From Jeotgalibacillus malaysiensis (GTDB lineage: Bacteria > Bacillota > Bacilli > Bacillales > Jeotgalibacillaceae): a stretch of 24,000 nt of DNA. The stretch covers positions 224,684-248,683 of the forward strand of contig NZ_CP085252.1 in assembly GCF_044789845.1 (NCBI RefSeq), read 5' to 3'. Every line of letters begins with the position of its first letter. Positions within the stretch are counted from its first letter, which is position 1. Under the pieces are notes generated by a model. The model had not been told where the DNA came from and did no database searches. It was given only the letters and a program-made list of their open reading frames with translations. Below, piece after piece: positions 1,315 to 15,402 of the stretch. A program made the position numbers and the translations under genes.

Positions 1315-1675
1315 TGACATTCACTTCTTTCTTATGTTCTAGTACAATCATCATTATTTGTCTAATATGTTCATCGTCTAACGAATAAAACGCTAGTTTT
1401 CCTTCTTTTCTATATCTTACAATCCCCTGCTTATGAAGGGTCCTTAAATGATGAGAAGCATTTGCCACCGTAATACCAATAATATTTGCTATATCACACA
1501 CACATAACTCTTCATCTTGACACAAAGCATAGGTAATCTTTGCCCTATTTTCATCCGCAATTGCTTTTAACATTTGGGCAACACTAACAATATCGATTGT
1601 TTTTAAATCACCTTGTATTCGATTGACCTTTTCCTCGTCATAACAAAAAATTTCACAAGTATCTTTCTTATTCAC
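1307..1675 (-). CDS. cadC: ArsR/SmtB-family Cd/Pb/Zn-responsive repressor CadC
   Basis: 122-aa ORF with N-terminal Cys (CEIFC), CVCDIANI metal-site region and the [12 protein letters not shown] winged-helix recognition helix. Its stop overlaps the cadA start (ATGTCTGA, 8-nt overlap), as in classical cadCA operons. Confidence 0.95.
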
Positions 1676-1690
1676 ATTATCACCCCATTG

Positions 1691-1758
1691 ATATTCAAAT
1701 GTTCACTTGAATATAGTATATACCTTCCCTTGGTTAATATTCAAGTGAATATTTGAAT
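1691..1758 (-). promoter_or_regulatory. cad promoter with two CadC-type operator dyads
   Basis: On the minus strand: -35 TTGAAT (1744-1739), 18-nt spacer, -10 TATACT (1720-1715). Dyad 1 is ATATTCAAATGTTCACTTGAATAT (1691-1714), between the -10 and the cadC start. Dyad 2 is ATATTCAAGTGAATATTTGAAT (1737-1758) and overlaps the -35. Dyad 2 is close to the reverse complement of dyad 1, and both resemble the TTCAAATA..TATTTGAA cad operator I recall from pI258. Confidence 0.6.
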
Positions 1759-1787
1759 GAAAAACATAAAATGATTTTTCTAATAGT

Positions 1788-1920
1788 AATTCCCATTAAC
1801 GAACGTTTTAGGGATTTTTTTGCACGCTTATATTTACATAGTTTTGAACTGTTTACCATTCCCTAAACTATTCCCTTTAACTTATTCCCTAAAATTGACG
1901 GTACCCCCGTATTAGGGAAT
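1788..1920. promoter_or_regulatory. Putative res (resolution) region for the adjacent serine resolvase
   Basis: A 30-bp dyad AATTCCCATTAACGAACGTTTTAGGGATT (1788-1817) sits here. Three direct ATTCCCT(A/T)(A/T)A repeats start at 1858, 1870 and 1884, with an inverted copy TTAGGGAAT at 1912-1920. The region lies just upstream of tnpR, the usual position of res subsites I-III in Tn3-family elements. Confidence 0.5.
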
Positions 1921-1944
1921 AATTAATTTCAGGAGGGGAATAGA

Positions 1945-2499
1945 ATGGGGAAAATTTTTGGATATGCTCGAGTTTCTACTCAAGATCAAAATTTAGAATT
2001 ACAAATGGATGCCTTACAAAAAGCTGGTGCAGCTGTTATCTACAAGGAAAAAATGACGGGCACAAAAAAAGAGCGTTTAGAATTAGAGCAACTCTTAAAA
2101 GCAATAAGTGAAGGAGATACAGTGGTTGTCTATAAACTAGATCGTATCTCAAGATCTACCAAGCACTTAATTGAATTAGCAGAAACCTTTGAGGAAAGAA
2201 AAGTGAATTTTGTTTCTATAAGTGACAACATTGATACGTCAACTGCAATGGGACGTTTTTTCTTCCGTACCATGGCAAGTATTGCTGAGTTAGAACGGGA
2301 TATCATCAGTGAACGTACTAAAGCAGGGTTACAATCTGCAAGAATTAGAGGTAGAAATGGCGGAAGACCAATTAAGGATCCAAAATTAGTAGAACGAGCA
2401 TTAAAACTACATGCTTCTAAGGAGTACAGTATAAAAGAGATTTCAGATATGACTGGTGTTAGTAAATCTGTGTTGTATCGAGCTATAGAACGTATATAG
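1945..2499 (+). CDS. tnpR: Serine recombinase, resolvase/invertase family (TnpR)
   Basis: 184 aa. The N-terminus GYARVSTQDQ carries the catalytic Ser motif, with VVYKLDRISRS and a C-terminal HTH (ISDMTGVSKSVLYRAI). RBS AGGAGGGG lies 7 nt upstream. Confidence 0.9.
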   Translation: MGKIFGYARVSTQDQNLELQMDALQKAGAAVIYKEKMTGTKKERLELEQLLKAISEGDTVVVYKLDRISRSTKHLIELAETFEERKVNFVSISDNIDTSTAMGRFFFRTMASIAELERDIISERTKAGLQSARIRGRNGGRPIKDPKLVERALKLHASKEYSIKEISDMTGVSKSVLYRAIERI

Positions 2500-2520
2500 A
2501 AATGAACAGGAGGCATTATC

Positions 2521-5443
2521 TTGTATTTGAGAGCAAGAGAACTACTTACACCTGAACAACGTATAGATTTCATGACAATTCCAGCTGATATTAGCGAGTG
2601 GGAAATAGCTACCTCCTACACTTTATCACCACATGATTTAGAAGTGATTAAACGTCGAAGACGAGACTATAATCGACTTGGATTTGCCGTTCAGTTATGT
2701 CTGTTTCGCTTTCCGGGATGGACATTATCGGATATTAAAGAAATACCTAAGACAGTTTTACTGTTTATTGCCAATCAAATTAAGGTTGACCCCTTAGAAT
2801 TTCAATCATATGCCGAACGGGAACAAACTAAGCATGAACATATGGTTGAAATTCGGAAAGAATATGGTTATAGGAACTTCTCAACAAGAGAATATCGTAA
2901 CATCTCTTCTTCTTTACTAAGCCATGCAATGGAAAATGAGAACTCAATGTATTTGATTAGGACGGCTATCGAAGAAATGAGGAAGCGAAAAAATTATTCT
3001 TCCAGCTATGTCGACTATTGAACGTCTGGTTTGGCAAACACGTCATCGAGCTGAACAAAAAATATATAAGATATTATCGCGGTCTCTATCCTCTTTGCAA
3101 AAGGAAAGTTTGATCCTAATGACGGAGTCTACTCTGGATAGTGGAAAAACACCTCTTGCTTGGTTAAAAGAAATCCCAGGACAATCTTCACCTGATGCCT
3201 TCTTAAAAGTCATTGAACGATTAGAGTATGTGAAAAAACTTGAGTTATCTATTGATTGTAATGACATACACCCGAACAGGCTTCTTCAATTGTCGCGTTT
3301 AGGTGCGCGATATGAACCTCATTCCTTCCGAAGATTTAATGAGACTAAAAAATATGCCATTCTTGTGGCTTATCTCTTAAATCTCAGTCAAGACTTAATT
3401 GATCAAGCCATTGGAATCCACGATCGCCAAATTATGATCTTGCAGTCAAAGGGCCGTAAGGCCCAAGAAGAAATGCAGAGACAAAACGGTAAAACAATTA
3501 ATGAAAAAATCATACAGTTTGCTGACATCGGTGCTGCACTAATAAAGGCAAGAAATGAAGGATTGGATCCGTTTACTACATTGGAAACCGTCATGTCCTG
3601 GGAGAAAATGATTGCATCGGTGGAAGAGGCAAAACAATTATCACGTCCTATCGACTATGATTATTTAGATCTTTTAGAAAGACGATTTTTTTATCTTCGA
3701 AAATATACGCCTACCTTACTTAAATCACTAAAATTTCAATCGACCCAATCAGCAAAACCATTGATAGAAGCACTAGATATTATTAAAAATATGAATGATT
3801 CAGGTAAACGAAAAGTTCCAGAAGGAGCTCCTCTTGGATTTGTCTCTAACCGGTGGCAGAAACACGTATATGACGAGGATGGAAGTATCAATCGACATTA
3901 TTATGAAATGGCAGCATTAACTGAATTACAAAATCATATTCGATCTGGAGATGTATCTGTTCGAGGCAGTAAACAACATAAAGATTTTGAAGAGTATCTA
4001 ATTCCAAAAGAAGAATGGTTAGAAACTGGATTACATCATAATCGCCTTGCTGTAGGCAGTTCTGCTGAAGAATATTTGACCGAAAGAATGGATTCTCTTC
4101 GAAAACGGCTGCAAGCTATGTCCGATAACGTTGATGAACTAGAGGGTGTCAGTATAAATAAGGGGAAAATTCGCATTGACCGTCTTGAAAAGGATACTCC
4201 AGAAGAAGCCAAGACGTTTAGTTCATCCCTATACAGCATGTTGCCACGGATAAAACTAACAGATCTGCTAATGGAAGTTGCAAGTTGGACAGGTTTTGAT
4301 GAACAATTTATTCATGCTTCTTCAAGCCGTCCTCCCAAAGGAGAGGAAAAGTCGATCTTATTAGCCACGATAATGGCGCTGGGTACAAATATTGGCTTAA
4401 CAAAGATGGCAGATGCTACACCCGGAATTACCTATCACCAAATGGCTCATGCTTCTCAGTGGCGTCTTTATGATGATGCGATGAATAAAGCTCAGGCAAC
4501 ACTTGTGAATTTCCATCATCAGCTTGCTTTATCTTCATATTGGGGAGATGGAAGTACTTCCTCTTCAGATGGTATGAGAGTACAAGTTGGCGTGTCTTCT
4601 CTACATGCAGAATCAAATCCTCATTATGGTTCTGGTAAAGGAGCTACGATTTATCGCTTTACAAGTGATCAGTTTTCTTCTTACTACACAAAAGTCATTA
4701 ATACCAACGCTCGTGACGCAGTTCATGTGATAGATGGGTTGCTGCATCATGAATCTGAATTGAATATTGAAGAACATTATACAGACACGGCTGGTTATAC
4801 CGATCAAGTTTTTGGACTGAGCCATCTACTTGGTTTTCGTTTTGCACCTCGCCTTCGAGATCTGTCTGATACTCGACTATATGTAATAGAAAAACCTGGT
4901 GAGTTTCCAACAATAGAAAAATTAATACGAGGGCGTATTAATACAAAGGTTATTCTAGAAAACTATGATGATGTTTTACGTCTAGCCCACTCCATTCGGG
5001 AAGGGAAAGTTTCTGGTTCACTCATTATGGGAAAGTTGGGGGCCTATTCAAGGCAAAATCGTTTGGCTACAGCACTCCGTGAAATGGGTAGAATTGAAAA
5101 AACAATCTTCATATTAGACTATATTTCAAATGAAGCAATACGTCGTCGAATTCAACGAGGGTTAAACAAAGGGGAGTCTATGAATGCCTTAGCACGAGCC
5201 TTATTTTTTGGAAAACGAGGTGAACTAAGGGATAGAGCGTTACAAGACCAGCTTCAACGTGCAAGTGCATTAAATATCATCATTAATGCTATCACTGTAT
5301 GGAATACAGTTTATCTCACAGAAGCAACAAAAGTTCTAAGTGAAAAAGGGATACTACGAGAGCAAATGATAAAACATATTTCACCATTAGGATGGGAACA
5401 CATTAATTTCTTAGGAGAGTATACTTTTGACATAAAAAAATGA
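2521..5443 (+). pseudogene. tnpA: Tn3-family transposase TnpA split by a +1 frameshift in an A6 run (2988-2993)
   Basis: ORF 2521-3021 (DUF4158-like N-terminus, TTG start 7 nt after AGGAGG) and ORF 3008-5443 together give about 977 aa, the normal Tn3 TnpA length. Removing one A from CGAAAAAAT restores ...EEMRKRKIILPAMSTIERLVW..., the conserved IILP..T.ERLV junction. The C-terminal part carries the DDE region. Confidence 0.85.
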
Positions 5444-5536
5444 CAGGACTCAACTCTTTAAGACCATTAGATCGATAAACTCCAGAGCCGGTACCCTTAG
5501 AGTAAAGGATATCGGTTTTTATATGGTAAATAATGT

Positions 5537-5575
5537 CTTAAAGTGGGTTTTGTGTCAAAATGTTGGCGGTACTCC
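5537..5575 (-). repeat. Tn3-family terminal inverted repeat (right end)
   Basis: The minus strand reads GGAGTACCGCCAACATTTTGACACAAAACCCACTTTAAG. It has the GGGG-type outer end and TAAG inner end. It is very close to the Tn4430 IR as I recall it (GGGGTACCGCCAGCATTTCGGAAAAAAACCACGCTAAG). It lies 94 nt after the tnpA stop, oriented inward. Confidence 0.75.
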
Positions 5576-5728
5576 ATTATGATCTAAATAATGACCATAT
5601 CATACTGAGATTTTCATAAAATACAAACTCAGTTCTGCTAATGAATTCATTTTGTTAAAAGTCAAAGAAATGCTACCATTCCTCCGCCAAATATGCATAT
5701 TTATGAGTTAAGGTGAAAGCAAATACTA

Positions 5729-7249
5729 ATGAAAGAAGGGATTGAGATAATGCAAAAAAAATTGCTAAAAGGAACCTTATCTATTTTAGCTGCAATAATC
5801 TTATCGGCTTGCACAGGTGATAGTGGGGGAATGAACTCTAGTATGATGATGGATAATGAAGATAATCCTGATCAAGGTATGGATCAGGATGGTATGAATG
5901 AAATGATGGATCATGGGGAGGTACCTTCACTTGCATCTTCTGAAGGAGTAAATGAGTTGGTGATTCCTCCATTATTAGAAAAGCAAAAAGGAAAAAACTA
6001 TGATTATGAAGTGACGGCACAAGAAGGGATCACTGAATTTTTCGAAGGAATCTCAACTGAGACTTACGGATATAATGGTGATTTGCTTGGTCCCACACTG
6101 AAAATAGAAGAAGGAGAGAGTGTGAATGTTAAAATTACAAATGACTTAAATGAACCAACTACATTTCATTGGCATGGTTTGGAAGTTGCCAGTAAAATAG
6201 ATGGTGGACCCAGTGATGAAATTCAACCAGGAGAAAGCCGGATCATTACATTAGAAGCTGATCAACCAGCTGCTACATTATGGTATCACCCACATGTTCA
6301 TGAAATGACTGCTGAACAAGTATTTAGAGGACTCTCAGGAATGTTAATCATTGACAATTCCATTAATTCAGATTTGGAGATTCCAAACGAATATGGGGTT
6401 AACGATATTCCGCTTATTTTTCAAGACCGTCTTTTTGACGAAGATAAGCAATTAGATTACGACAATCTCATGAATGTAGACGGCACTTTGGGTGACGTTT
6501 CCATGGTGAACGGAACAATCAATCCAAAGATGACTGTCACAGAACCTATTATGCGATTTCGTTTATTAAATGGATCAAATGCACGTAATTATACATTTCG
6601 CTTAAGTAATGGTGATAATTTCACTCAAATTGCCTCTGACGGCAGCTTACTCGATGAGCCAGTTGACCGTAAAGAACTTACACTCGCTGCTTCGGAGCGT
6701 GCTGAAATTCTTATAGATTTTTCGAAATTAACTGAAGAGGAATCACTTTCTATCATTAATGAAGAAGGTGTAGTGCTACTCCCATTTGATGTGAAAGATA
6801 CTGATTCAACAGCGGGCTCTATTAAAACATGGACCACTGATGAGCCGTTTTTGACAGATGAGGAGAAAGAAATGCCTGTTACTAAAAACATTGAATTATT
6901 TGGAATGATGGATATGGTATCTATTAACGGAAAAAAATTCGATGCTGATCGTATTGATTTGCGTCAGGAGCAGGGCGTGACAGAAGTGTGGGAAATTTAT
7001 AATAAACCGGATATGATGGGTGGTATGGTACATCCATTCCACATTCATGGTACCCAGTTCAAAGTAATTTCCCGTGACGGTGAAGAAGTGGAAGAAAGTG
7101 AACAAGGCTTTAAAGATAGTGTTGCAGTTGAACCTGGTGAAAGAGTAAAATTGCTCGTCACTTTTCCTGAAAAAGGGGTTTACGTATTCCATTGCCATAT
7201 TTTAGAACATGAAGATAATGGCATGATGGGACAGATTGAAGTGTATTAA
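5729..7249 (+). CDS. Multicopper oxidase (CueO/laccase-like), lipoprotein with Met/His/Asp-rich N-terminal linker
   Basis: All four MCO copper motifs are present: FHWHGLEV, WYHPHVH, HPFHIHG and HCHILEHEDNGMMG. A signal peptide with lipobox ILSAC is present. The true start may be ATG 5750 (MQKKLL...). Confidence 0.9.
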   Translation: MKEGIEIMQKKLLKGTLSILAAIILSACTGDSGGMNSSMMMDNEDNPDQGMDQDGMNEMMDHGEVPSLASSEGVNELVIPPLLEKQKGKNYDYEVTAQEGITEFFEGISTETYGYNGDLLGPTLKIEEGESVNVKITNDLNEPTTFHWHGLEVASKIDGGPSDEIQPGESRIITLEADQPAATLWYHPHVHEMTAEQVFRGLSGMLIIDNSINSDLEIPNEYGVNDIPLIFQDRLFDEDKQLDYDNLMNVDGTLGDVSMVNGTINPKMTVTEPIMRFRLLNGSNARNYTFRLSNGDNFTQIASDGSLLDEPVDRKELTLAASERAEILIDFSKLTEEESLSIINEEGVVLLPFDVKDTDSTAGSIKTWTTDEPFLTDEEKEMPVTKNIELFGMMDMVSINGKKFDADRIDLRQEQGVTEVWEIYNKPDMMGGMVHPFHIHGTQFKVISRDGEEVEESEQGFKDSVAVEPGERVKLLVTFPEKGVYVFHCHILEHEDNGMMGQIEVY

Positions 7250-7275
7250 GCAGAAAACTCAATATAGTACAAAGA

Positions 7276-7309
7276 GTCTCCAAAGGTTAAGTTTTCACCT
7301 TTTGGAGAC
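7276..7309 (+). terminator. Probable intrinsic terminator after the oxidase gene
   Basis: GTCTCCAAAGG...CCTTTTGGAGAC hairpin (one bulged T) followed by a T-rich stretch. Confidence 0.5.
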
Positions 7310-7430
7310 CCTTTGGATTATTTGCTTTATTATGCCTTGAAAACCTTACATTTAATTAATCAAAAAAGTTGGCTTATCATCGAGGCAGAGGCTAACTTAT
7401 TTTTTGATTGTGCGAAGTTTGGGTAATAAT

Positions 7431-7476
7431 AAAAAGCTTGCAGTGTCCCATCAATTATGAGCACTGCAAGCTTATT
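7431..7476 (-). terminator. Intrinsic terminator (works in both directions) after the DUF1541 gene
   Basis: Perfect AGCTTGCAGTG / CACTGCAAGCT stem flanked by an A-run on the left and a T-rich run on the right, 9 nt past the stop of the minus-strand gene. Confidence 0.7.
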
Positions 7477-7484
7477 TATTTCAT

Positions 7485-8123
7485 TTATTCCGGCTCTTTT
7501 AACTCTTCCTCTGTAATCCATTTATGATTAGTCACTTCATCTCCGTTTTCTAAAGTAAAGTCAACCATATAAACAGTTGTCTCCTCGGCAGTATCAATTT
7601 CAGCCGTTGCACCTTCCATACCTTCCATGTGTGAAGCTTCTACCTTTACTTCATCACCTTTTTGGTAAGACTCTTCCTGTCTGTCAGAAATTTCTTCATG
7701 AATAACCCATTTATGATCTTCTACTCTATCTCCACCATCGGTTGGGTCATAAGAAATACTATAAGCTACAGTGTCATAGGCTCCTACAACTGTAGCTTCT
7801 GCACCCTCCATGCCTTCCATATGTGATGCAGTGATTATTGCTGTGTCACCAGCCTCAAACTTCGGTGCCTCGGCCTCTTGCAGACCTTCAGGAATTTCAC
7901 CTGAACCGGACATATCCATACCTGAATGGTCCATCTCCTCGGTAGAATCGCTTTGTTCTGAAGAATTATCTTCGTCCATTGATTCCATTTCATTTTCAGT
8001 TTCTTCGGTCTCAGAATCATTCACTGCGCCAGATTCTGCTCCTTCATTATCTGCACAGGCAAATAAAATTGTACTTGCTGCCAGTGAAAATGTACCTATC
8101 ATCAGTCTTTTACTCAATGCCAC
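7485..8123 (-). CDS. YdhK/CopL-like lipoprotein with two DUF1541 domains and an acidic Met/His-rich linker
   Basis: GTG start 7 nt after GGGAGGT, with lipobox LFAC. Two repeats are present: ASHMEGMEGAEATVVGAY...HKWVIHEE and ASHMEGMEGATAEIDTAE...HKWITEEE. This tandem DUF1541 architecture matches B. subtilis YdhK and S. aureus CopL, a Cu-binding lipoprotein. Confidence 0.8.
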   Translation of the reverse strand: MALSKRLMIGTFSLAASTILFACADNEGAESGAVNDSETEETENEMESMDEDNSSEQSDSTEEMDHSGMDMSGSGEIPEGLQEAEAPKFEAGDTAIITASHMEGMEGAEATVVGAYDTVAYSISYDPTDGGDRVEDHKWVIHEEISDRQEESYQKGDEVKVEASHMEGMEGATAEIDTAEETTVYMVDFTLENGDEVTNHKWITEEELKEPE

Positions 8124-8150
8124 TAATATAACCTCCCAATATCGTTATAT

Positions 8151-8167
8151 AAATGGGATACCCATTT
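8151..8167. promoter_or_regulatory. Perfect 7-3-7 palindrome AAATGGG-ATA-CCCATTT, candidate operator
   Basis: It lies 28-44 nt upstream of the GTG start of the DUF1541 lipoprotein gene, inside its presumed promoter region. Confidence 0.3.
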
Positions 8168-8258
8168 TTTGTGCAGAAATGATGGAGGATTGAAAATAAA
8201 ATTAAAATTTTTTTGTGATAAAACACATTATAAACAAGGAGGCTATGTCGATGTAATT

Positions 8259-9203
8259 TCAATTGACTTGGAAAATACCTTCCATTCCTTGTTCCTTATG
8301 GTTTGGTAATGAGCAAAAGAAGGGAACTTGAGTAGCTTTTTTTGCAATTAATTGGACCGATTTCGATTCACCAGGTTTCAAATGTATATGTACTTTATTT
8401 GAATTAGTTCCATGATTATGTGTATTACTTAAGTTATTAAGGATTTCTATTGTATTATTTTCAAATTGAAGGTCATGATCGATTGTTCCGGTGTTAGTCA
8501 GTACTATCTCAGTTAAAGAGCCCTTTTGCAATTGTATCTTTGAAGGATAGTAAGTATATTCGTTCATTTTCACCTCTACTTTTTCTGATATGCTGGATTG
8601 TGGTTCTTTTGTGGTATGATTTTCAGATAAAATTTGATTGTTATTTACATGGGGGTGGCTTTTAATTTCATTTATAAAAAATAAAGGTCCAGTCATTTCA
8701 ACTATAAAAAACAAAATTATAAATATGACCCCTGCTTTTAATGGGTTAGAGACAGCATTTATCAATAATTTTCTAGTGCTATTTACTTCATCTCCGATTA
8801 ATCTAATAACCAACGCTGAAATAAAACAATGACTAAAGAATAAAATCTTTACCATAGAATCGTAATTTTCACTTTGAATCATAGATCCCAGCATAACCCC
8901 CATCATTCCGGCCATAACACCTGATAACATCCCATCCAGTAAGGCTACTTTCCCTATTCCGTTTCCAGGGATTGCTCCAACCACTAAACCGGTCATCATG
9001 CTGTAAACCGTTGCAATAAATAAGTTGTCTGAAAAATATATTCCTAAAATGGTTCCAATTATTAATCCTGTTGACATCGCCGTAGACATGGAAATCATCA
9101 TACCATTCATTTTGCTAATTGTTTTATGGGTATACATTAAAGCAACAATCGTTCCATACAATATAAATGACAGGGCAATAATCACGAGCAATCCTACATT
9201 CAA
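8259..9203 (-). CDS. Polytopic Met-rich membrane domain fused to a C-terminal cupredoxin (type-1 Cu) domain
   Basis: About 180 aa of Gly/Met-rich transmembrane segments (GMLSGVMAGMMGVMLGSM) come first. The C-terminal beta-rich domain carries type-1 Cu ligands: H in TIDHDL and FFCSLPNHKEQGMEG (C-x4-H-x4-M), the F.C..P.H...GM.G cupredoxin signature. Confidence 0.75.
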   Translation of the reverse strand: MNVGLLVIIALSFILYGTIVALMYTHKTISKMNGMMISMSTAMSTGLIIGTILGIYFSDNLFIATVYSMMTGLVVGAIPGNGIGKVALLDGMLSGVMAGMMGVMLGSMIQSENYDSMVKILFFSHCFISALVIRLIGDEVNSTRKLLINAVSNPLKAGVIFIILFFIVEMTGPLFFINEIKSHPHVNNNQILSENHTTKEPQSSISEKVEVKMNEYTYYPSKIQLQKGSLTEIVLTNTGTIDHDLQFENNTIEILNNLSNTHNHGTNSNKVHIHLKPGESKSVQLIAKKATQVPFFCSLPNHKEQGMEGIFQVN

Positions 9204-9274
9204 TAGATCTAATTCCTTCCTGTATTTAATTTTTTGGTTAATTTATTTTTATCATATGTAAAAAACACCTTTAC

Positions 9275-9291
9275 ATACCTAGTATGGGTAT
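9275..9291. promoter_or_regulatory. CsoR-type operator-like dyad ATACCTAGTATGGGTAT
   Basis: ATACC-N7-GGTAT lies about 70 nt upstream of the start (9203) of the cupredoxin-fusion gene. It resembles the ATACC...GGGGTAT CsoR operators recalled for Firmicutes copZA promoters. Confidence 0.35.
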
Positions 9292-9545
9292 ATTATTATA
9301 TTTATAATAGGTTCCAATAATTGATCAAATAATCTCTTACAATAAAGAGTGTGCTTTTTCGCTAACGAAATTTAGTTTGGTAATAAAAGGTTTTCGACAT
9401 GAGCTAAACTGAATTGAATAATAAACGCGTTAGATCTAGAAGATAATTGAAAAAGTATGTATTTGTTGAATTGTATACAGTAGATTTGTAATAACGGTTC
9501 AGAAGTGATTATTTGAAAAAATTATAATGGCGAGGAGGATATAAA

Positions 9546-9755
9546 ATGGAGAGTGTATCACTAAAAGTTACAGGTATGTCTTGTCAGAATTGTGTAAAAT
9601 CTATTGAAAAAAACCTTGGTGAGATGCAGGGTGTTGAGAAAGTTTCTGTTTCACTTCAAGAAAACATTGTCAATGTAAACTATAATGAAGATGAGGTTTC
9701 TTTAGATCAAATGCAAGTTGTAATAGAAGATCAAGGTTACGAAGTTAATAAATAG
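9546..9755 (+). CDS. copZ: Copper chaperone CopZ (HMA domain)
   Basis: 69 aa with the GMSCQNC (MxCxxC) motif. RBS GAGGAGG lies 6-7 nt upstream. Confidence 0.9.
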   Translation: MESVSLKVTGMSCQNCVKSIEKNLGEMQGVEKVSVSLQENIVNVNYNEDEVSLDQMQVVIEDQGYEVNK

Positions 9756-9790
9756 TATCTTAGAATTTGTTCGAGCCCGTTAGAATAACA

Positions 9791-9839
9791 AAATAGTCCA
9801 CAAGGAGCAATTGCTACTTGTAGACTATTTTGTTTTTTT
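9791..9839 (+). terminator. Intrinsic terminator after copZ
   Basis: AAATAGTCCACAAG...CTTGTAGACTATTT long hairpin (one mismatch, with an inner AGCAATTGCT palindrome) followed by TGTTTTTTT. Confidence 0.8.
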
Positions 9840-9934
9840 GTGAGAGAATGCATCATTTCTCGATAAATTTACTCTATTATGTTCATGTGATTGAACCAGA
9901 ATGAATGACTATATTTATAAAGGAGATGATGATT

Positions 9935-10183
9935 ATGATGAATGGCTCTGGCATGATGGCGGGTGGAATGTGGCTCGGTATACTGCTTGTTGGTTTGGTG
10001 GTCATACTTGTGATATTCGCATTTTTTAAACTGCTTAATTCTAGAATAGACGGTGATTCCGCTAAGCATCAAAATGAAGGAGATTTTTCTTTGATCATCC
10101 TCAATGAAAGGTTAGCGAAGGGTGAGATACAAGTAGAAGAATACAATCATCTGAAAGGTATAATCCTTAAGTCAGAAAAATAA
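9935..10183 (+). CDS. Small membrane protein with C-terminal SHOCT domain
   Basis: Preferred start is ATG 9935, 9 nt after AGGAG. It has one TM helix (MWLGILLVGLVVILVIFAFF). The C-terminus LNERLAKGEIQVEEYNHLKGIL matches the SHOCT pattern (L..R.A.GEI...EY...K..L). Confidence 0.7.
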   Translation: MMNGSGMMAGGMWLGILLVGLVVILVIFAFFKLLNSRIDGDSAKHQNEGDFSLIILNERLAKGEIQVEEYNHLKGIILKSEK

Positions 10184-10270
10184 AAAAATAAAAGTATTTT
10201 AGAAATATTGCTGAAATATTGAACAAATTCAGCATTGACAATCACAGTAAGCAAAGTTGGGTGAAATGCA

Positions 10271-11005
10271 GTGAATGATTTGTTTTGGCAAGTCAGTAAT
10301 ACTTTCAGTGAACCATTTTTTGAACTGTTCCATCAGGCGCAAAGCTTTCCGATCATTGCTGCTTTTTTTCTTGGTATTGTCGGTGCATTGGCACCCTGTC
10401 AGTTCACAGGTAATCTGGGGGCTATCGCAATATATGGTAATCGTTCAATTCAGAACAAAATCGCGTGGACTGAGGTTTATTTTTTTATAGTCGGTAAAAT
10501 CTTTGTATTCTCACTCCTTGGTTTTGTTGTCTGGCAGTTTGGAAATGAAATCGAACAAAGCCTGATTACTTACTTTCCATGGCTCAGAAGGATCGTCGGA
10601 CCAATATTAATTGTCATTGGATTATTTTTGTTAGGCATCTTTAAATCACGTTTGGGAGTTCAATTCATAAGACTTCCAGAAAGGTGGTTTAAAAGGGGGA
10701 AGTTAGGTGCTTTTTTAATGGGTGTTAGCTTTTCTCTTGGGTTTTGTCCAACAATGTTCGTTTTATTTTTTGTCACGCTGCTGCCATATTCATTTACTGT
10801 TAGTTACGGCTTTATATTGCCTGCCATATTCTCAGTGGGAACATCACTTCCATTGTTGATTGCGTTATTTTTATTATGGTTTTTTGACATTGAGAATAGA
10901 AACTTAAAAAAGAATGGGAGAAAAATCGGAAACTACGTACAGAAAGCTGCTGGGATATTTATCATTTTTTTGGGGATAATCGATATCGCTACTTACTGGG
11001 TGTGA
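10271..11005 (+). CDS. DsbD/CcdA-superfamily (DsbD_2-like) polytopic membrane protein
   Basis: 244 aa with about 6 TM segments. One conserved Cys sits in each half (GALAPCQF and LGFCPTMF), as in CcdA/DsbD-type thiol-disulfide transporters. GTG start with a weak RBS. The functional assignment is tentative. Confidence 0.6.
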   Translation: MNDLFWQVSNTFSEPFFELFHQAQSFPIIAAFFLGIVGALAPCQFTGNLGAIAIYGNRSIQNKIAWTEVYFFIVGKIFVFSLLGFVVWQFGNEIEQSLITYFPWLRRIVGPILIVIGLFLLGIFKSRLGVQFIRLPERWFKRGKLGAFLMGVSFSLGFCPTMFVLFFVTLLPYSFTVSYGFILPAIFSVGTSLPLLIALFLLWFFDIENRNLKKNGRKIGNYVQKAAGIFIIFLGIIDIATYWV

Positions 11006-11288: not shown

Positions 11289-11305
11289 GTTTGGAGGGAT
11301 TTTCA

Positions 11306-12529
11306 ATGGAAGTATCAATTAATAATTTGGATTTTAGTAACATAGATAAAAAATTAAGCCATTTATCTAGAGAGCAAATTGTAGAGTTAATAACAGCATA
11401 TTATGATGGAGAAAAAATTAAGGATCTCTTGTCAGAATATGAAATAAAAACAACCGCATCAAATTTAGTGAAAATATTCCCTTCAGTGTTAAATAATGAG
11501 TATTGTATAAAATGTGAATCGCCTATTGTTATACATCTAGAATCTAGATCGTACTCAAATTATTTTACAAATCATCATGAATATTGTTCTAGTTGTGGAC
11601 ATCAAGAAACATCTTTTTGTAGTTGCGAATTTTGTAAAAAAGAAAGAATGGAAGCAAAAAGATTAGAGGAAGAGCGCCAAAAAAGGTTAATAGAGAAGAA
11701 AAGACAATTATTATGTGATCATTATGAAGAAGATAATTGGGAGATGATTTTAGAGACAGATTTAAGCTTAGAAGATAGACTTTATTTAGCGGTTATATTA
11801 CGAGGTGCTCTTTCAGAAAATACAAGCTATATTGAACCTCTAGAAAAAATTAAAGAGAAAATAGCACCTACAACAGAATATGAGAGAGAGATAATAAAGA
11901 CATTAACAGGTAGAAACATTTTAGTTCCTAGCTTGAAATCAAAAGTAGATGACTTTGAAATAGAGTTTGTATCAGAAGATGAAGAACAATATAAAATTGC
12001 TTACTATATCTATAAAGTTCATTATCGTTTGAATGTCATGCCAGAAGATGACGACTACGATGCTATGATTAAGCGGTTAATGTATCCTCATTTGAAAGAT
12101 GAAGAAGGTTTCAAAGATTTTTGTTACGGGATATGGAGACAAGTTGCACTTAATGAATGCTTACAGTATTTGTTATATCAAATGCATAAAGTGGGCTACA
12201 CATTTAATCCTGGGGAGAAGACGATAAAAGTTTTTGAGGAACTTTTAGAACATTTCTCAGTCTCGCAGATTTATAGCATTATTTATCGATCAGTTGCTAA
12301 CAGCACTCAAAGATATCAAGCTAGAGAAATCACAAAAATACACGCTCAGAATTCAGTCATAGCTTCATGTGAAAGTTATGGTCAACGAGCAATAGCGCAG
12401 GGGTGGAAATTAACTCATTATGCACGCTTAAGAGATTTACCGGAGACGTATATAAGCAATGTATTATTTACATCAATTATGCAAATAGCAGAACTGGGTT
12501 TTTCAGAAAAACCTACGCCAGATTTCTAA
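11306..12529 (+). CDS. Hypothetical 407-aa protein with a multi-Cys (zinc-ribbon-like) cluster; function unknown
   Basis: ATG 11306 lies 8 nt after GGAGGG (the track ORF starts at 11291). Cys cluster: C67xxC70, C94xxC97, C105xC107xxC110. A charged KRLEEERQKRLIEKKRQ helix follows, then a C-terminal region of about 280 aa with no motif I recognise. The gene is AT-rich like the neighbouring RT gene. Confidence 0.75.
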   Translation: MEVSINNLDFSNIDKKLSHLSREQIVELITAYYDGEKIKDLLSEYEIKTTASNLVKIFPSVLNNEYCIKCESPIVIHLESRSYSNYFTNHHEYCSSCGHQETSFCSCEFCKKERMEAKRLEEERQKRLIEKKRQLLCDHYEEDNWEMILETDLSLEDRLYLAVILRGALSENTSYIEPLEKIKEKIAPTTEYEREIIKTLTGRNILVPSLKSKVDDFEIEFVSEDEEQYKIAYYIYKVHYRLNVMPEDDDYDAMIKRLMYPHLKDEEGFKDFCYGIWRQVALNECLQYLLYQMHKVGYTFNPGEKTIKVFEELLEHFSVSQIYSIIYRSVANSTQRYQAREITKIHAQNSVIASCESYGQRAIAQGWKLTHYARLRDLPETYISNVLFTSIMQIAELGFSEKPTPDF

Positions 12530-12616
12530 ATGAAATGAGGAGTTCATATGGCTAAACGTCAAATAGGTTGAACTAATGCAAAAAATCTCTCGGCACATTT
12601 AGGAAGGCGAAACATC

Positions 12617-12656
12617 GGGACGTGTGTTACCCCCAACACGCGCCCCTGATTTTTAC
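12617..12656 (+). terminator. Probable terminator of the 407-aa gene
   Basis: GGGACGTGTGTT / AACACGCGCCCC stem (one mismatch, one G-U), loop ACCCCC, followed by TGATTTTT. Confidence 0.5.
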
Positions 12657-12702
12657 ATCCTTTTTTTAGTATAAAAATCTTCTGTGCGGAAATAGTTAGA
12701 TT

Positions 12703-13620
12703 TTATAAATTGTTTATTTTCGTGTTTATTGATTGAAAAGGGTTAGAACCTTCAACATAGTCAAAAGCTATTAAACATCCTTTTAATTTTGAGATTAATA
12801 ACGTGATATGTTCTGAATCTTGTTTTAACAATGCAGCTTCTAATTCATTATCTAAATCAATTATTTTTTTTCTTAATTTATTCGGAACTTTCATAGTTCT
12901 GTTTTTTAAGATAACGCCAGTTACATTAATTGGCCTATTATAGCTATGAACTGTTTTTTCGGGGTTTACTTGAAAATTATAACTCTCGATGATTCTGATG
13001 ACTTTGCTTTTAAAATGTCTTCCGATAGGCTTATTTGCAGAAAATGTAATATCATCAACATAAACTGTCATAGTAATATTTTCTTGCTTTGCATATTGGT
13101 GAATCTTATCAAACATTTGATAGTAAGATAAAATTGAAAGTAGTGCACTTGTGGGGTAGCCCTGGGGTAAATGTCTATGATTGTGATTAGGTAAAGGTTC
13201 GGTAGTGAGCAGTGTATATATTTTTGCTATGTCAGCTGGCATCTTCATTGCATTTCTAAAAAAGGAATATACATATCTTTCATTTGTAGAGGGATAAAAA
13301 TTTGTTATATCAATCATAAGAAAACATTTATGATCTATATGTGCATTAGCATTGGTTACATAACTTTTTCCTTTGACTCCACCATTAATGTAGTCTGGTA
13401 ATTTAATACTAGATAAATTTCTATTGATCTTTCTGAGGATTCGTTTATATCTGGGTTTTGGAGGGAAAATTGTTCTTTTTTTTTGACCAATTTTATCAAC
13501 GTATGATTTTGTTGAAAAATATTTGTCGATATCTTTAAGTTCATAGATTTTTATTGACAGTAATTCTGAGAGAAACTTTTTATTACTTACCTTGTATAAA
13601 AAGTGCTTTTGAATGTCCAT
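12703..13620 (-). CDS. Retron-type reverse transcriptase, stand-alone (305 aa, no fused effector domain)
   Basis: The motif series aligns with retron RTs such as Ec86. KKRTIFPPKPRYKRILRKI matches R.I..P....K..Q. GGVKGKSYVTNANAH matches NAxxH. FLMIDITNFYPS, LPQGYPTSALLS and the catalytic YVDDITFS are present, followed by NPEKT and the retron-typical VTGVIL. RBS AAAGGTGA lies upstream of ATG 13620. Confidence 0.9.
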   Translation of the reverse strand: MDIQKHFLYKVSNKKFLSELLSIKIYELKDIDKYFSTKSYVDKIGQKKRTIFPPKPRYKRILRKINRNLSSIKLPDYINGGVKGKSYVTNANAHIDHKCFLMIDITNFYPSTNERYVYSFFRNAMKMPADIAKIYTLLTTEPLPNHNHRHLPQGYPTSALLSILSYYQMFDKIHQYAKQENITMTVYVDDITFSANKPIGRHFKSKVIRIIESYNFQVNPEKTVHSYNRPINVTGVILKNRTMKVPNKLRKKIIDLDNELEAALLKQDSEHITLLISKLKGCLIAFDYVEGSNPFQSINTKINNL

Positions 13621-13645
13621 CTGATCACCTTTAGTTTAGTTAGAT

Positions 13646-13954
13646 TATAATTAAAGGTAGAGCCGAATAGTTCAAAGAACCTTAAAATTAAACTTGATAA
13701 TTTGTATAATTGAAACAAAGTCAAATTTAATAATTTTAAAAAAGGTTCAATGGAAAGGATAAATGCAAATAACTTAACCGGATAACTGTCAATTAAGTTA
13801 TAAAATTTACTACCTTTCTTTTTATTCCTATCACGTCGACTTACACGAGTATTCATATGGATGCCCCCTTAAAAGTAGTAGGCGTTATTACGCCCCCTCT
13901 GCATTACTTTAAAGGGCTTCGGAGAAATAAATCGACCAGCTCTACCTTAATTAA
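13646..13954 (-). ncRNA. Putative retron msr-msd-like non-coding RNA
   Basis: The minus-strand transcript carries a long-range inverted repeat. The 5' arm is TTAATTAAGGTAGAGC (13954-13939) and the 3' arm is GCTCTACCTTTAATTATA (13663-13646). These give 10 perfect bp plus 5 more across a 1-nt bulge, and the 3' arm ends 25 nt before the RT start, as for retron a2/a1 repeats. G residues follow the 5' arm (TGGTCG). Three internal hairpins are present: 13916-13866 (11/12-bp outer stem plus GGCGT/ACGCC inner stem), 13801-13769 (9-bp stem) and a long AT-rich hairpin at 13748-13677 (about 21 bp with bulges). Confidence 0.4.
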
Positions 13955-14137
13955 CCAAGAAACCTCTGCTTATCTTGTAGAAGTAATCTCCCAAATAACA
14001 AGCGATATCCTTCTCGGTGGTGCGCCAGTTCGTTGCCCTGAGCGCAGTTGCGCTAGGAGCCGTATTGGGCACAAATTTCCGCCTTAAAGGCAATATAAAA
14101 CCTGCAGAGTAATTTCCTGCTAAATACTCGTGGTTCT

Positions 14138-14166
14138 ATTTTAGTATACAATACTTTTTTTGGCAA
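14138..14166 (-). promoter_or_regulatory. Candidate sigma-A promoter TTGCCA-17-TAAAAT reading toward the RT locus
   Basis: -35 at 14166-14161 and -10 at 14143-14138 on the minus strand. It is the best promoter match upstream of the RT and putative ncRNA. Confidence 0.35.
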
Positions 14167-14219
14167 CTTTAGTATTTTATAAGTTAATTGGAAAGGTATG
14201 AGCTTTTTGAATTATTAGC

Positions 14220-14757
14220 TATCTAAGTGATACAGTTGTATATGTGGACGTATATTTTCATCTGCTTGTTGAAAAGCTGAAGCATTTTACAACGAATATG
14301 ATTATCCTGACAGGCGCTTTGAGCAAAGAATGAATTTTTCGAACTGAGTTCCAGAAGCTTTCCTCTATTCCTAATCATGGGGGATAGAATCATCCTTGCA
14401 ATAGGTAAGCATGCGGGTGAAGGCTTTGACAATCCAAGGCTCGATACGATCTTCCTGACAATGTCCGTCTCCTGGAAAGGCACTCTTGCACAGTATGTCG
14501 GACGCCTGTACAGAGCATACGAAGGGCAAGAGTCTGTGGAGGTTTATGAATCATTGTTCCTGTGTTGAACACAACACCCACACAATTTTACTTGTTTATA
14601 TAACCAAAATGAATTGAGTGTGATTTTATTATGACACAGGGATATTCACAAATTACTAAATGGGAAATTATAGTGATATTTTAAAGGGATATAAATCGCT
14701 TGGTTACTTGACGGTGGAGGAAGCGAAGAAAGAGAAGAAGCAAATGAAGTTGTTTTA
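14220..14757 (+). pseudogene. 3' remnant of a DEAD/DEAH (superfamily 2) helicase gene with an in-frame stop, a frameshift and a MITE insertion
   Basis: Pieces read ...VDVYFHLLVEKLKHFTTNMIILTGALSKE*, then IFRTEFQKLSSIPNHGG*. After a frame change they read DRIILAIGKHAGEGFDNPRLDTIFLTMSVSWKGTLAQYVGRLYRAYEGQESVEVYE (helicase C-terminal motifs V-VI). Past the repeat comes ...ILKGYKSLGYLTVEEAKKEKKQMKLF*. The N-terminal two-thirds of the gene are absent. Confidence 0.6.
14555..14647 (+). repeat. MITE-like repeat, type 2, copy 1
   Basis: Terminal inverted repeats are TCCTGTGT...ACACAGGGA. It is about 85% identical to 18494-18585 and has an internal terminator-like hairpin (degenerate in this copy). 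It interrupts the helicase remnant. Confidence 0.75.
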
Positions 14758-14786: not shown

Positions 14787-15191
14787 CTAACTGAAGAATG
14801 AAAATGGGTGAATACGCTCAACACGCAGCCTTTTTGATATTTTGTTAGCACCGTTATCGAGTATATAGAATGAGCTTAAAAATAACCCCTCTGAGTTAAG
14901 CTTAATGGGCAAAATCACATGATCATTCAATACTTTATAAAGTTCAACAGTACCGGGTTCTTTGGGATTTTGACCTGCGTAATCAGGAAGCGAGATCATG
15001 TCGGGTATCTTCTCGTGATAAGTCATAAAGTCATCCCAATGACCTTTTTTCTTCAAATGCTTGAGTACACCGGGAGGCATATGAACTTCCAGGCTTTTGT
15101 ATTGTATTTGATAGTAATCTGTAATCGTCTGAGGTATAAATCCGACGGTTTGAGTGGTAGTAGCGTAAGGGTTTACAGAGATGATGGACAT
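14787..15191 (-). CDS. Hypothetical 134-aa protein
   Basis: Intact ORF with ATG start and GGAAGGA about 12 nt upstream. It contains LKHLKKKGHWDDF, which faintly recalls small phage/toxin-associated nuclease-fold (PBECR-type) proteins; this is unverified. A second copy of its last 12 codons occurs at 18620-18655. Confidence 0.55.
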   Translation of the reverse strand: MSIISVNPYATTTQTVGFIPQTITDYYQIQYKSLEVHMPPGVLKHLKKKGHWDDFMTYHEKIPDMISLPDYAGQNPKEPGTVELYKVLNDHVILPIKLNSEGLFLSSFYILDNGANKISKRLRVERIHPFSFFS

Positions 15192-15265: not shown

Positions 15266-15402
15266 CCTTAAATTGACACAAAGATTATCTGCAGGGCGGC
15301 AATCCTGATCTCTGGTAACTATCTCAATGATAGCGCGTGGGGAACCTTTCCCACCTCAGATAACCTCTGTGGTATTCATTAGTTTATTCAATCATTCTTG
15401 TT
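15243..15402 (-). ncRNA. Candidate structured small RNA or cis-regulatory leader (about 160 nt), family not recognised
   Basis: It is bounded by a near-consensus promoter and an intrinsic terminator. A 15-bp closing stem pairs 15371-15357 with 15291-15277 and encloses three hairpins (15354-15337, 15333-15319, 15307-15292), giving a cloverleaf-like four-way junction. The two non-Watson-Crick positions of the closing stem are G-U on the minus strand but A-C on the plus strand, which points to a minus-strand RNA. Confidence 0.45.

Follow-up and report, generated by a model that had tools for sequence, protein, structure and literature searches.

Canonical retron units such as Retron-Eco1 (Ec86) are approximately 150-250 nt long and contain no open reading frame (ORF). 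The a1 repeat forms their 5' end, the priming G comes after it, and the complementary DNA (cDNA) serves as an antitoxin scaffold. Type I toxin mRNAs, such as hok mRNA with its fbi/tac-ucb elements, are locked by long-range pairing between their 5' and 3' regions. Here, we describe a locus that shares features with both and groups with the Type VI retrons. It is located in a 24,000-nt stretch of Jeotgalibacillus malaysiensis NZ_CP085252.1 (hereafter, the window; all coordinates are window positions). The retron lies on the minus strand and comprises a reverse transcriptase (RT) gene and, directly upstream of it, a structured RNA that includes the interval 13646-13954.

Type VI is the sole retron type whose reverse-transcribed DNA is thought to turn a toxin on, not to restrain it. 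According to Mestre et al. (2020, PMC7736814), Type VI retrons have an RT of the Type VI group within retron RT clade 3. A Cro/C1-type helix-turn-helix (HTH) protein (cluster 2_1, PADLOC HTH_VI, 91-110 aa) is encoded upstream of the RT gene or overlaps it, and a small accessory protein (SP), which has 75-79 aa in clusters 2075, 2760, and 3272, is encoded upstream. In Retron-Vpa2 of Vibrio parahaemolyticus, a hyRNA of approximately 470 nt combines the msr-msd with a small toxic SP coding sequence (Zhang et al., 10.1101/2025.10.22.683967). The ribosome-binding site (RBS) and AUG of SP lie in stem-loops, a separate arm consists of the remaining SP coding sequence, and the 3' end pairs back via inverted repeats. 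The msd and the riboregulator loop each contain one copy of a 7-nt direct repeat. The multicopy single-stranded DNA (msDNA) is needed for SP translation and is sufficient in trans, and its 5' stem-loop carrying the repeat is essential. When mapped, the msDNA falls on the long first-arm stem-loop that precedes SP, outside the coding part. The HTH of Vpa2 represses reverse transcription (10.1101/2025.10.22.683967).

Retron-Sen3 has a pair of inverted repeats, IR1-IR2, that flanks SP, and the RBS of SP is sequestered (Garcia-Rodriguez et al., 10.64898/2026.04.27.721009). The HTH is the antitoxin. SP is constitutive and is controlled post-translationally, and the single-stranded DNA (ssDNA) is also constitutive. 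In cl2075, structural selection on the SP coding sequences is weak, and the IR1-IR2 stem is without statistically significant covariation (10.64898/2026.04.27.721009). The HTH of Vpa2 and Sen3 is a repressor of reverse transcription or an antitoxin, and its loss is toxic (10.1101/2025.10.22.683967; 10.64898/2026.04.27.721009). The Type VI mechanism is unsettled: Vpa2 and Sen3, both HTH-dependent, disagree. A lineage without the HTH but with a well-defined RNA would be a simpler system for direct tests of the riboregulator.

A Type VI reverse transcriptase and the small gene in front of it

We consider it likely that the interval 13646-13954 is the 3' two-thirds of one structured Type VI hyRNA of about 500 nt (approximately 14131 to 13640, minus strand), in which the translation of SP is switched by cDNA. 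Each feature of the published Vpa2 hyRNA architecture has a counterpart at this locus. Predicted pairings bury the Shine-Dalgarno (SD) sequence and start of SP and connect the 3' end of the SP coding sequence with the junction beside a template-like domain, and a short 5' element (E5) is matched to two 7-nt repeats. In the sequence comparison, these pairings and the E5/repeat 1/repeat 2 set are conserved and covarying. Judged in this way, the element is evidently homologous to the Type VI hyRNA. The coordinates of all its parts are listed in Table 1.

The RT is best matched by the PADLOC model RT_VI (1.3e-74 over aa 8-284 of 305), followed by RT_III-A (1.1e-39), and it matches RVT_1 in Pfam (3.9e-17). 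The sequence contains YVDD as well as the retron-typical NANAH and VTG motifs, and it is 100% identical to an annotated protein of J. malaysiensis. The RTs of relatives in the Bacilli score 1e-66 to 1e-69 on RT_VI. By these profile matches, the gene is a Type VI retron RT.

Relatives were collected through the RT. Distant blastn searches against plasmids gave no DNA relatives, and a genome scan with a single RT query gave none; an RT alignment was needed, with which 240 related loci were gathered. The nearest relatives all belong to the Bacilli (Virgibacillus, Bacillus, Listeria, Streptococcus, Exiguobacterium, Paenibacillus, Psychrobacillus, and metagenomic relatives), and they have RTs only 36-45% identical to the RT of the window. 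The genes flanking the SP-RT pair differ in every locus, and no third gene is conserved.

The first-pass annotation had proposed that 13646-13954 is an msr-msd unit of the retron type, longer than usual at approximately 309 nt. The assignment to a retron holds, as the RNA belongs to the adjacent RT, but its parts were misassigned, and the ORF and the upstream domain were missed. Most of the interval is an 89-codon ORF with an SD of its own, and there is an equivalent ORF in every Bacilli relative. Because it is mainly a conserved coding ORF, the interval is not an msr-msd unit. The length is also unremarkable, since the whole RNA has approximately 490-510 nt, compared with approximately 470 nt for the Vpa2 hyRNA. 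By homology of position and architecture, the interval between the arms of the inverted repeat is assigned as the putative SP gene of a Type VI retron.

The SD of this ORF, AAGGGGG (13870-13864), ends 7 nt before the ATG. Given the base composition, a run of 89 codons without a stop has a probability of approximately 4e-4. All Bacilli-clade relatives examined (approximately 20 divergent A+T-rich loci) have an ORF of 71-110 codons in the equivalent place. These ORFs have an SD and an ATG (TTG in one locus), encode a basic N-terminus and a hydrophobic remainder, and end at the RT start or overlap it. In the SP of the window, the N-terminus is likewise basic (+7 in 18 residues), residues 26-66 form a hydrophobic core, and the isoelectric point is 10.6. 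In size, position, and character, the ORF is as expected for an SP. The protein has no match in Pfam or PADLOC. A single-sequence search of a collection of 5.8 billion protein clusters gave no match, not even to SP itself, although the adjacent RT is there; apparently, gene calling in the source genome missed the ORF. A profile of the small ORFs of the clade matches unnamed small proteins only. AlphaFold2 models SP as all-helical, with one long helix, at low confidence (predicted local distance difference test score, 69.5). By analogy with Vpa2 and Sen3, SP is probably a small toxin.

The long-range helix that closes the SP gene

The annotation had described an inverted repeat of 10 and 5 bp separated by a 1-nt bulge, whose 3' arm ends 25 nt before the ATG of the RT. 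Its arms, TTAATTAAGGTAGAGC and GCTCTACCTTTAATTATA, are indeed complementary in this way, and the helix can be extended by 3 further pairs, wobbles included. In a fold of 13960-13621 (-90.9 kcal/mol, z = -5.2), the long-range helix is part of the minimum free energy (MFE) structure. The putative full transcript, 14134-13621, folds at -152.1 kcal/mol (z = -6.95), and its MFE structure uses the long-range helix together with a second helix, helix X, which is described below.

The 10-bp core alone is only marginally unusual, as an equally good distant perfect helix is present in 10 of 200 dinucleotide shuffles of 13600-14180. The helix is beyond chance because cognate arms outpair non-cognate arms across the relatives. 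In this pairing test, the segment following repeat 1 was paired with the final 100 nt ahead of the RT, within and between loci; RNAduplex with long windows gave noise, and the windows were narrowed. Cognate arms pair at -19.7 kcal/mol and non-cognate arms at -11.8 kcal/mol in 13 loci (0 of 20000 permutations), and the values in 20 loci are -23.1 and -17.5 kcal/mol (0 of 100000 permutations). The sequence of the helix varies from locus to locus, with pairs such as GGTAGAGC/GCTCTACC, GGCAAGAGTTAA/TTAACTCTTGCC, TGTAGGAGCTAAT/ATTAGCTCCTGCA, AAGATATTAGAGAGAGC/GTTCTCTCTAATATCTT, and GAAGAGCGGAAAT/ATTTCTGCTCTTT. Covariation upstream of homologous RTs had been suggested as a check, and the inverted repeat is conserved and covarying in approximately 20 loci. 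The distance from the 3' arm to the ATG of the RT is 26-33 nt in 11 loci.

The 3' arm lies within the coding sequence of SP in the window. In loci L082 and L083, the 3'-arm nucleotides (approximately 60-30 nt before the RT start) fall past the stop codon of SP, and near-identical 3'-arm nucleotides are translated in different frames in L001 and L083. For these reasons, the constraint on the 3' arm acts on the RNA and not on the protein. The comparison thus assigns the inverted repeat as the closing helix of the SP-gene part of the RNA. Pairing of the 3' arm with the SD region of the RT (13627-13636 with 13649-13658; 10 nt, 90% complementary) was also considered and was rejected, as it is not cognate-specific (-7.4 vs. 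-7.2 kcal/mol, p = 0.33). The pyrimidine-rich 3' arm looks like a case of generic anti-SD character.

It is barely credible that the structure is fortuitous, that is, that the A+T-rich coding DNA of a hydrophobic peptide yields hairpins and a chance 10-bp complement without an RNA function. The 5% of shuffles with an equally good helix are what such an origin would give, as is the lack of conservation of two of the three hairpins between the arms (see below). Against this, four helices are cognate-specific across loci whose RTs are only 36-45% identical, the 3'-arm nucleotides are conserved even outside the reading frame or in another frame, and the fold of the whole transcript is far from that of shuffled sequences (z = -6.95). 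Shared recent ancestry is unlikely to be the source of the pattern at such divergence.

Sequestration of the SP start by hairpin 1 and helices X and Y

Three hairpins had been noted between the arms, and all of them are present and fold better than dinucleotide shuffles (z = -2.6, -3.9, and -4.6). Whether they are conserved differs among them: hairpin 1 covaries, and hairpins 2 and 3 have no conserved position in the relatives. Hairpin 1 has an outer stem of CCCTTTAAAGTA/TACTTTTAAGGG. Its loop contains repeat 2, GCAGAGG (13902-13896), followed by an inner hairpin (13895-13880), and its 3' strand contains the SD of SP. With a covariance model that was seeded from hairpin 1 of the window and then rebuilt a single time, the element was detected directly ahead of the small ORF in 14 further loci. 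In the resulting alignment, 92.1% of the cells are paired, compared with 62.7% in shuffles, and compensatory changes occur at 14 of 17 pairs. The covariation score is 0.77, compared with 0.27 in shuffles (0 of 500), and slid controls reach at most 0.25. MAFFT with RNAalifold had predicted only 4 pairs for hairpin 1; that alignment is blind to structure and was replaced by the covariance model.

The same layout of anti-SD strand, 7-nt repeat, inner hairpin, and SD strand is seen in canonical loci with SP, HTH, and RT (L017, L019, L020, and L098). In some of these, the Bacilli model of hairpin 1 gives weak matches at the expected place (E = 0.09-0.6). From its layout, hairpin 1 is not an msr stem; it is predicted to sequester the SD of SP in the manner of a Type VI riboregulator.

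Helix X pairs GTCGATTTAT, which follows the 5' arm, with early codons of SP, and it encloses both hairpin 1 and the AUG. Its cognate strands pair at -10.5 kcal/mol and non-cognate strands at -7.3 kcal/mol (13 loci, p = 4e-5). It is present in the single-sequence folds of most loci and in the MFE fold of the window. Helix Y pairs CACGAGTATT in the 5' leader with the codons directly after the AUG, and its cognate and non-cognate values are -10.1 and -6.4 kcal/mol in 16 loci (0 of 100000 permutations). Helix Y crosses helix X and the long-range helix; for this reason, it would be an alternative conformer or a pseudoknot.

These results bear on the view that the 309-nt interval is itself the msr-msd. 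The inverted repeat would then be a1/a2, a G after the 5' arm would prime, hairpin 3 (13748-13677) would be the msd, and the resulting cDNA would run antisense to the 3' portion of this ORF. The long-range helix is conserved and covarying, as this view expects, and it stands at a fixed 26-33 nt before the RT start. Furthermore, the authors of the Vpa2 study noted that the helix matching the long-range helix resembles an a1/a2 region (10.1101/2025.10.22.683967), and the priming site is not stated in the Type VI accounts compared. Nevertheless, we regard this view as quite improbable. A conserved ORF that has an SD of its own occupies the interval, whereas canonical msr-msd units have no ORF between their arms, and hairpin 3, which had been taken for the msd stem-loop, sits in the SP coding sequence at a position that is not conserved, like hairpin 2. 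The segment TGGTCG, which had been read as the priming site, is the 5' strand of the covarying helix X, and relatives have no conserved G after the 5' arm. In Vpa2, moreover, the msDNA comes from the first arm, upstream of SP, with the repeat at its 5' end (10.1101/2025.10.22.683967). At the present locus, repeat 1 and the variable hairpins are located 5' of the 5' arm, making that arm a2-like and not a1-like.

The SP coding sequences have a general tendency to structure only. The z-scores of the coding segments across 15 loci range from +0.2 to -4.6 and are negative in 14 of the 15, in line with the weak structural selection described for cl2075.

The upstream domain: promoter, E5, template-like hairpins, and repeats

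The promoter, the template-like hairpins, and the first 7-nt repeat lie at 14166-13955, outside the interval that was first described. The putative promoter is the best sigma-70-like site in 12400-14400, and boxes resembling TTGACA and TATAAT are aligned at its place in the relatives. Transcription would start near 14131. As there is one conserved promoter, we infer a single transcript.

E5 is complementary to both copies of the 7-nt repeat. In 15 of 15 loci, E5 and the repeat form all six core pairs, four positions of which show compensatory changes (CTCTGC/GCAGAG, TCTCGC/GCGAGA, CCCTGC/GCAGGG, and CCTTGC/GCAAGG). For 13 of 16 loci, the MFE structure computed without constraints includes the closing stem of E5 and repeat 1. 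Repeats 1 and 2 share an identical 6-nt core within each locus, and this core covaries between loci (GCAGAG, GCGAGA, GCAGGG, and GCAAGG). In canonical loci, the 7-nt repeats differ by lineage (GGGGAAC, GGGGAGC, and GGAGCAA) and are located approximately 150-500 nt upstream of the HTH gene (L017, L019, L020, and L098). In L017 and L019, the first hairpin past the promoter has an E5-like GTTTCCC in its loop; L098 and L020 have an E5-like complement in a similar place. These cases suggest that Type VI retrons in general have the E5/repeat triad.

E5 is followed by a small conserved hairpin. Relatives have a hairpin and GG(T/A)A at the same place, and the stems differ in sequence (GCC/GGC, GTTGG/CCAAC, and GCTATT/AATAGC). 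The two hairpins downstream, at 13955-14072, form the most variable interval among the relatives, in both length and sequence; in the Streptococcus loci, the base of the stem is conserved and the apex is variable. Likeness to the stem-loop SL3 of Sen3 and to the msd stem-loop of Vpa2 points to this domain as the putative template of the RT.

A short sequence near E5 may be mentioned here. GCAGG (14120-14116) can form a small local hairpin with E5, and a terminator scan flagged 14104-14120 (minus strand) as a stem with a T-rich tail. This local hairpin could keep E5 occupied early in transcription. Short GCAGG-like complements of E5 are found in some relatives, not in all.

Absence of the HTH and class of the locus

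No ORF next to the RT of the window matches a Pfam HTH or PADLOC HTH_VI. A tblastn search with three HTH_VI proteins found none in the 24-kb window or in 34 Bacilli-type loci, and the controls L017, L020, and L098 were found. By jackhmmer, 121 of 227 loci have an HTH, and none of the 18 non-redundant members of the Bacilli clade has one. In a rough neighbor-joining tree, these 18 RTs are monophyletic and nested among HTH-carrying loci, and their sister group is 75% HTH-positive. The distant loci L017-L020 and L098 have the canonical order of a short SP, a 100-aa HTH (Pfam HTH_3; PADLOC HTH_VI, 1.7e-29), and the RT. Among Type VI entries in general, approximately 78% encode an HTH and approximately 22% do not (Garcia-Rodriguez et al., 10.64898/2026.04.27.721009).

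From RT type and predicted RNA architecture, the locus groups with Type VI; one defining feature of the original definition, the HTH, is absent. It is best classed as an HTH-less, Gram-positive Type VI variant, the hyRNA itself being already known from Vpa2. No Rfam family matches the retron RNA, even at permissive thresholds (the best score is 21 bits, against a gathering score of 60).

In a Bacilli lineage without the HTH, repression would seem to rest on RNA structure alone. A further step is possible, if somewhat doubtful. A monophyletic lineage in the Bacilli (Jeotgalibacillus, Virgibacillus, Bacillus, Listeria, Streptococcus, Enterococcus, Exiguobacterium, and Paenibacillus) may have lost the HTH and may carry a minimal two-gene toxin system that is held off purely by RNA. 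Four covarying helices and the strand-exchange switch of E5, repeat 1, and repeat 2 would do so without a protein, and reverse transcription would be the trigger. Copying across repeat 1 would both yield a DNA complement of repeat 2 and release E5, the RNA mimic of this DNA, and either of the two would open the riboregulator.

A calling rule that needs both RT_VI and HTH_VI would not score this system as complete. Systems like this one may be missed or logged as a lone RT, because such a rule fails and the toxin ORF is absent from the protein collection.

Proposed mechanism

The 5' domain of the proposed hyRNA (14109-13955) would be msr-msd-like, with E5, the small hairpin, the variable template-like hairpins, and repeat 1, and the rest would be the SP mRNA. 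SP would be kept off by pairing of its SD in hairpin 1, with repeat 2 exposed in the loop. Its start-proximal codons would pair with the segment after the 5' arm, forming helix X, or with the 5' leader, forming helix Y. The long-range helix would tie the end of the coding sequence back to the junction with the template domain, closing the coding part in one fold.

By homology with Vpa2, the RT would start copying the template domain at its 3' edge, and the 5' end of the cDNA would carry the complement of repeat 1. Upon phage infection, cDNA would accumulate, and the complement of repeat 1 would pair with repeat 2 in the loop of hairpin 1, opening the riboregulator. E5 has the same sequence as the cDNA complement and, once freed from repeat 1, could likewise pair with repeat 2. 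SP would then be made and, as in Vpa2, would be toxic. The anatomy of the RNA suggests one more step. Since helix X, helix Y, and the long-range helix each have one strand in the coding sequence, ribosomes translating SP would melt them, which would give a self-reinforcing switch. The covarying helices and the triad of E5, repeat 1, and repeat 2 specify the compensatory mutations to make.

Some observations speak against this model. Sen3 represents a Type VI lineage with a similar RNA but a different, post-translational logic (10.64898/2026.04.27.721009). The HTH is central in Vpa2 and Sen3 and is absent here, and the Vpa2 mechanism would therefore not be fully transferable to this locus. In the MFE fold of the window, repeat 1 is at the base of hairpin 14017-13955 or is paired with E5, and is not in an apical loop as in Vpa2. 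The MFE fold lacks helix Y, which can be nested with neither helix X nor the long-range helix, and part of the 5' strand of helix Y may be upstream of the true transcription start. No priming guanosine can be assigned in this RNA. SP is without detectable similarity to any named protein, and its AlphaFold2 model is of low confidence. Two of the analyses also lean towards the proposed structure, as the alignment of hairpin 1 was fitted to its model and E5 was found by complementarity. Nevertheless, E5 lies in one aligned block of a structure-blind MAFFT alignment.

The Sen3 case also offers an explanation without a translational switch. SP would be constitutive or would not be the effector, and the RT and cDNA would act otherwise, such as by RecBCD sensing, SP-cDNA binding, or SP-RT fusions; the role of the helices would be to stabilize the RNA, recruit the RT, or set the ratio of RT to SP. 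The scaffold of Sen3 is comparable, yet its SP is constitutive and controlled post-translationally (10.64898/2026.04.27.721009), and the generic anti-SD likeness of the pyrimidine-rich 3' arm fits such a role. Three relatives hint at a physical link between SP and the RT: in L005 (2231-3199), L010 (2255-3520), and protein P0006 (Enterococcus gilvus, 420 aa), the small ORF is in frame with the RT without a stop between them, and the product is annotated as an RT with an N-terminal hydrophobic extension. The read-through could be a true SP-RT fusion or could contain an internal RT start. However, the restraint on Sen3 SP is the HTH antitoxin. In a clade without it, a constitutive toxin would be left without a known restraint. 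In addition, the SD and start-proximal codons of SP lie in conserved covarying helices, and the best explanation for the identity of repeats 1 and 2 within a locus is that one is copied into cDNA that pairs with the other. We therefore judge this explanation unlikely and retain the cDNA-switched hyRNA as the preferred model.

Comparison with the described systems

Like Vpa2, the locus would produce one transcript of approximately 470-510 nt that carries an msr-msd-like domain and the SP gene, with the RBS and start of SP sequestered. Both have one 7-nt direct repeat by the template domain and another in the loop of the riboregulator, a 3' end that is folded back by pairing with the first domain, and an RT gene downstream. 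Unlike Vpa2, the J. malaysiensis locus has no HTH gene between SP and RT, and SP overlaps the RT start. The 3' arm is inside the SP coding sequence and not past it. The repeat family is GCAGAGG, and repeat 1 is predicted in a closing stem with E5 instead of an apical loop. The host is a Gram-positive member of the Bacillales, which extends the hyRNA-type retrons to Gram-positive bacteria.

The locus resembles Sen3 and cl2075 in that a long-range inverted repeat flanks SP, with its 5' arm at the 3' edge of a candidate template stem-loop. The RBS of SP is sequestered, the SP coding sequence tends to structure, and the template-like stem-loop is variable in its center, as is SL3 of Sen3. In cl2075, which is proteobacterial, IR2 is located past the SP stop and there is no significant covariation, whereas the pairing described here is clearly cognate-specific. 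Sen3 differs in using an HTH antitoxin and constitutive ssDNA.

As in Retron-Eco1/Ec86, the RNA is directly upstream of the RT, inverted repeats bracket the structure, and the RT has the hallmarks NAxxH, VTG, and YxDD. However, the bracketed segment is a putative toxin mRNA, with an 89-codon ORF between the arms and no conserved G after the 5' arm, and the cDNA would be an activator by analogy with Vpa2. The resemblance to hok consists of a small hydrophobic toxin ORF, a buried SD and start, ends tied by long-range pairing, and alternative conformers that would decide on translation. In contrast to hok, the proposed trigger is DNA reverse-transcribed from the same transcript and not 3' processing or the decay of an antisense RNA. 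Furthermore, the SP gene is coupled to the RT both physically and evolutionarily.

Table 1. Retron features in the window, ordered along the minus strand from the promoter to the RT gene.
Feature	Position	Strand	Remarks
Putative promoter	14138-14166	-	TTGCCA, 17-nt spacer, TAAAAT; 10/12 matches
Helix Y, 5' strand	14123-14132	-	CACGAGTATT; 10-nt perfect inverted repeat with 13853-13844
E5 element	14104-14109	-	CTCTGC
Small conserved hairpin	14080-14092	-	UGCCU-UUA-AGGCG, then GGAA/GGTA (to 14077); weak alone in the window (z = -1.5)
Template-like (msd-like) domain	13955-14072	-	Hairpins 14072-14020 (z = -3.1) and 14017-13955 (z = -4.2); G+C-rich relative to surroundings
Repeat 1	13963-13969	-	GCAGAGG; 3' edge of template-like domain; 67 nt upstream of repeat 2
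5' arm, long-range helix	13939-13954	-	TTAATTAAGGTAGAGC; 10 perfect bp; cognate-specific pairing in relatives
Helix X, 5' strand	13927-13936	-	GTCGATTTAT; pairs with 13844-13835 (SP codons 5-8)
Hairpin 1, predicted SD-sequestering riboregulator	13866-13916	-	CCCTTTAAAGTA/TACTTTTAAGGG; -17.6 kcal/mol, z = -2.6
SP ORF, putative small toxin	13587-13856	-	89 aa; overlaps RT start by 34 nt
Helices Y (13853-13844) and X (13844-13835), 3' strands	13835-13853	-	Within SP codons 2-8
Hairpin 2	13769-13801	-	-8.6 kcal/mol, z = -3.9; 12-bp stem with wobbles, 9 bp perfect; in SP coding sequence
Hairpin 3	13677-13748	-	-15.2 kcal/mol, z = -4.6; in SP coding sequence
3' arm, long-range helix	13646-13663	-	GCTCTACCTTTAATTATA; within SP codons 65-71 (GSTFNYN)
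Type VI retron RT	12703-13620	-	305 aa; ATG at 13620; SD AAGGTGAT at 13631-13624

Genomic surroundings

The retron is located at the edge of a mobile region. This region (1307-11005) includes a Tn3-family transposon module with a resolvase (1945-2499) and a Tn3 DDE transposase (3008-5443). Beside the module are an ArsR-family regulator and copper-handling genes, namely, a multicopper oxidase (5729-7249), a membrane protein with a cupredoxin domain (8259-9203), and a DsbD_2-family protein (10271-11005). A 412-aa ORF (11291-12529, plus strand) is convergent with the RT; the N-terminal part of its product is Cys-rich, and it has no match in Pfam or PADLOC. This ORF is absent beside related RTs and is therefore probably outside the retron.

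Upstream of the retron, a 63-aa ORF (14377-14568, plus strand; …GEGFDNPRLDTIFL…GTLAQYVGRLYR…) resembles by eye a fragment of a helicase C-terminal domain and has no Pfam match at E <= 0.001. Possibly the remnant of a gene, it separates the retron from the next gene, an ORF of the PBECR3 family (14787-15191, minus strand; a barnase/EndoU/colicin-like nuclease). A skipping-rope RNA (Rfam RF02924; score, 60.5 bits; gathering score, 36.7) is found at 15284-15364 on the minus strand, approximately 90 nt upstream of the PBECR3 ORF. The skipping-rope RNA and the PBECR3 ORF, upstream of the retron and on the same strand, may be another defense or toxin module in the island.

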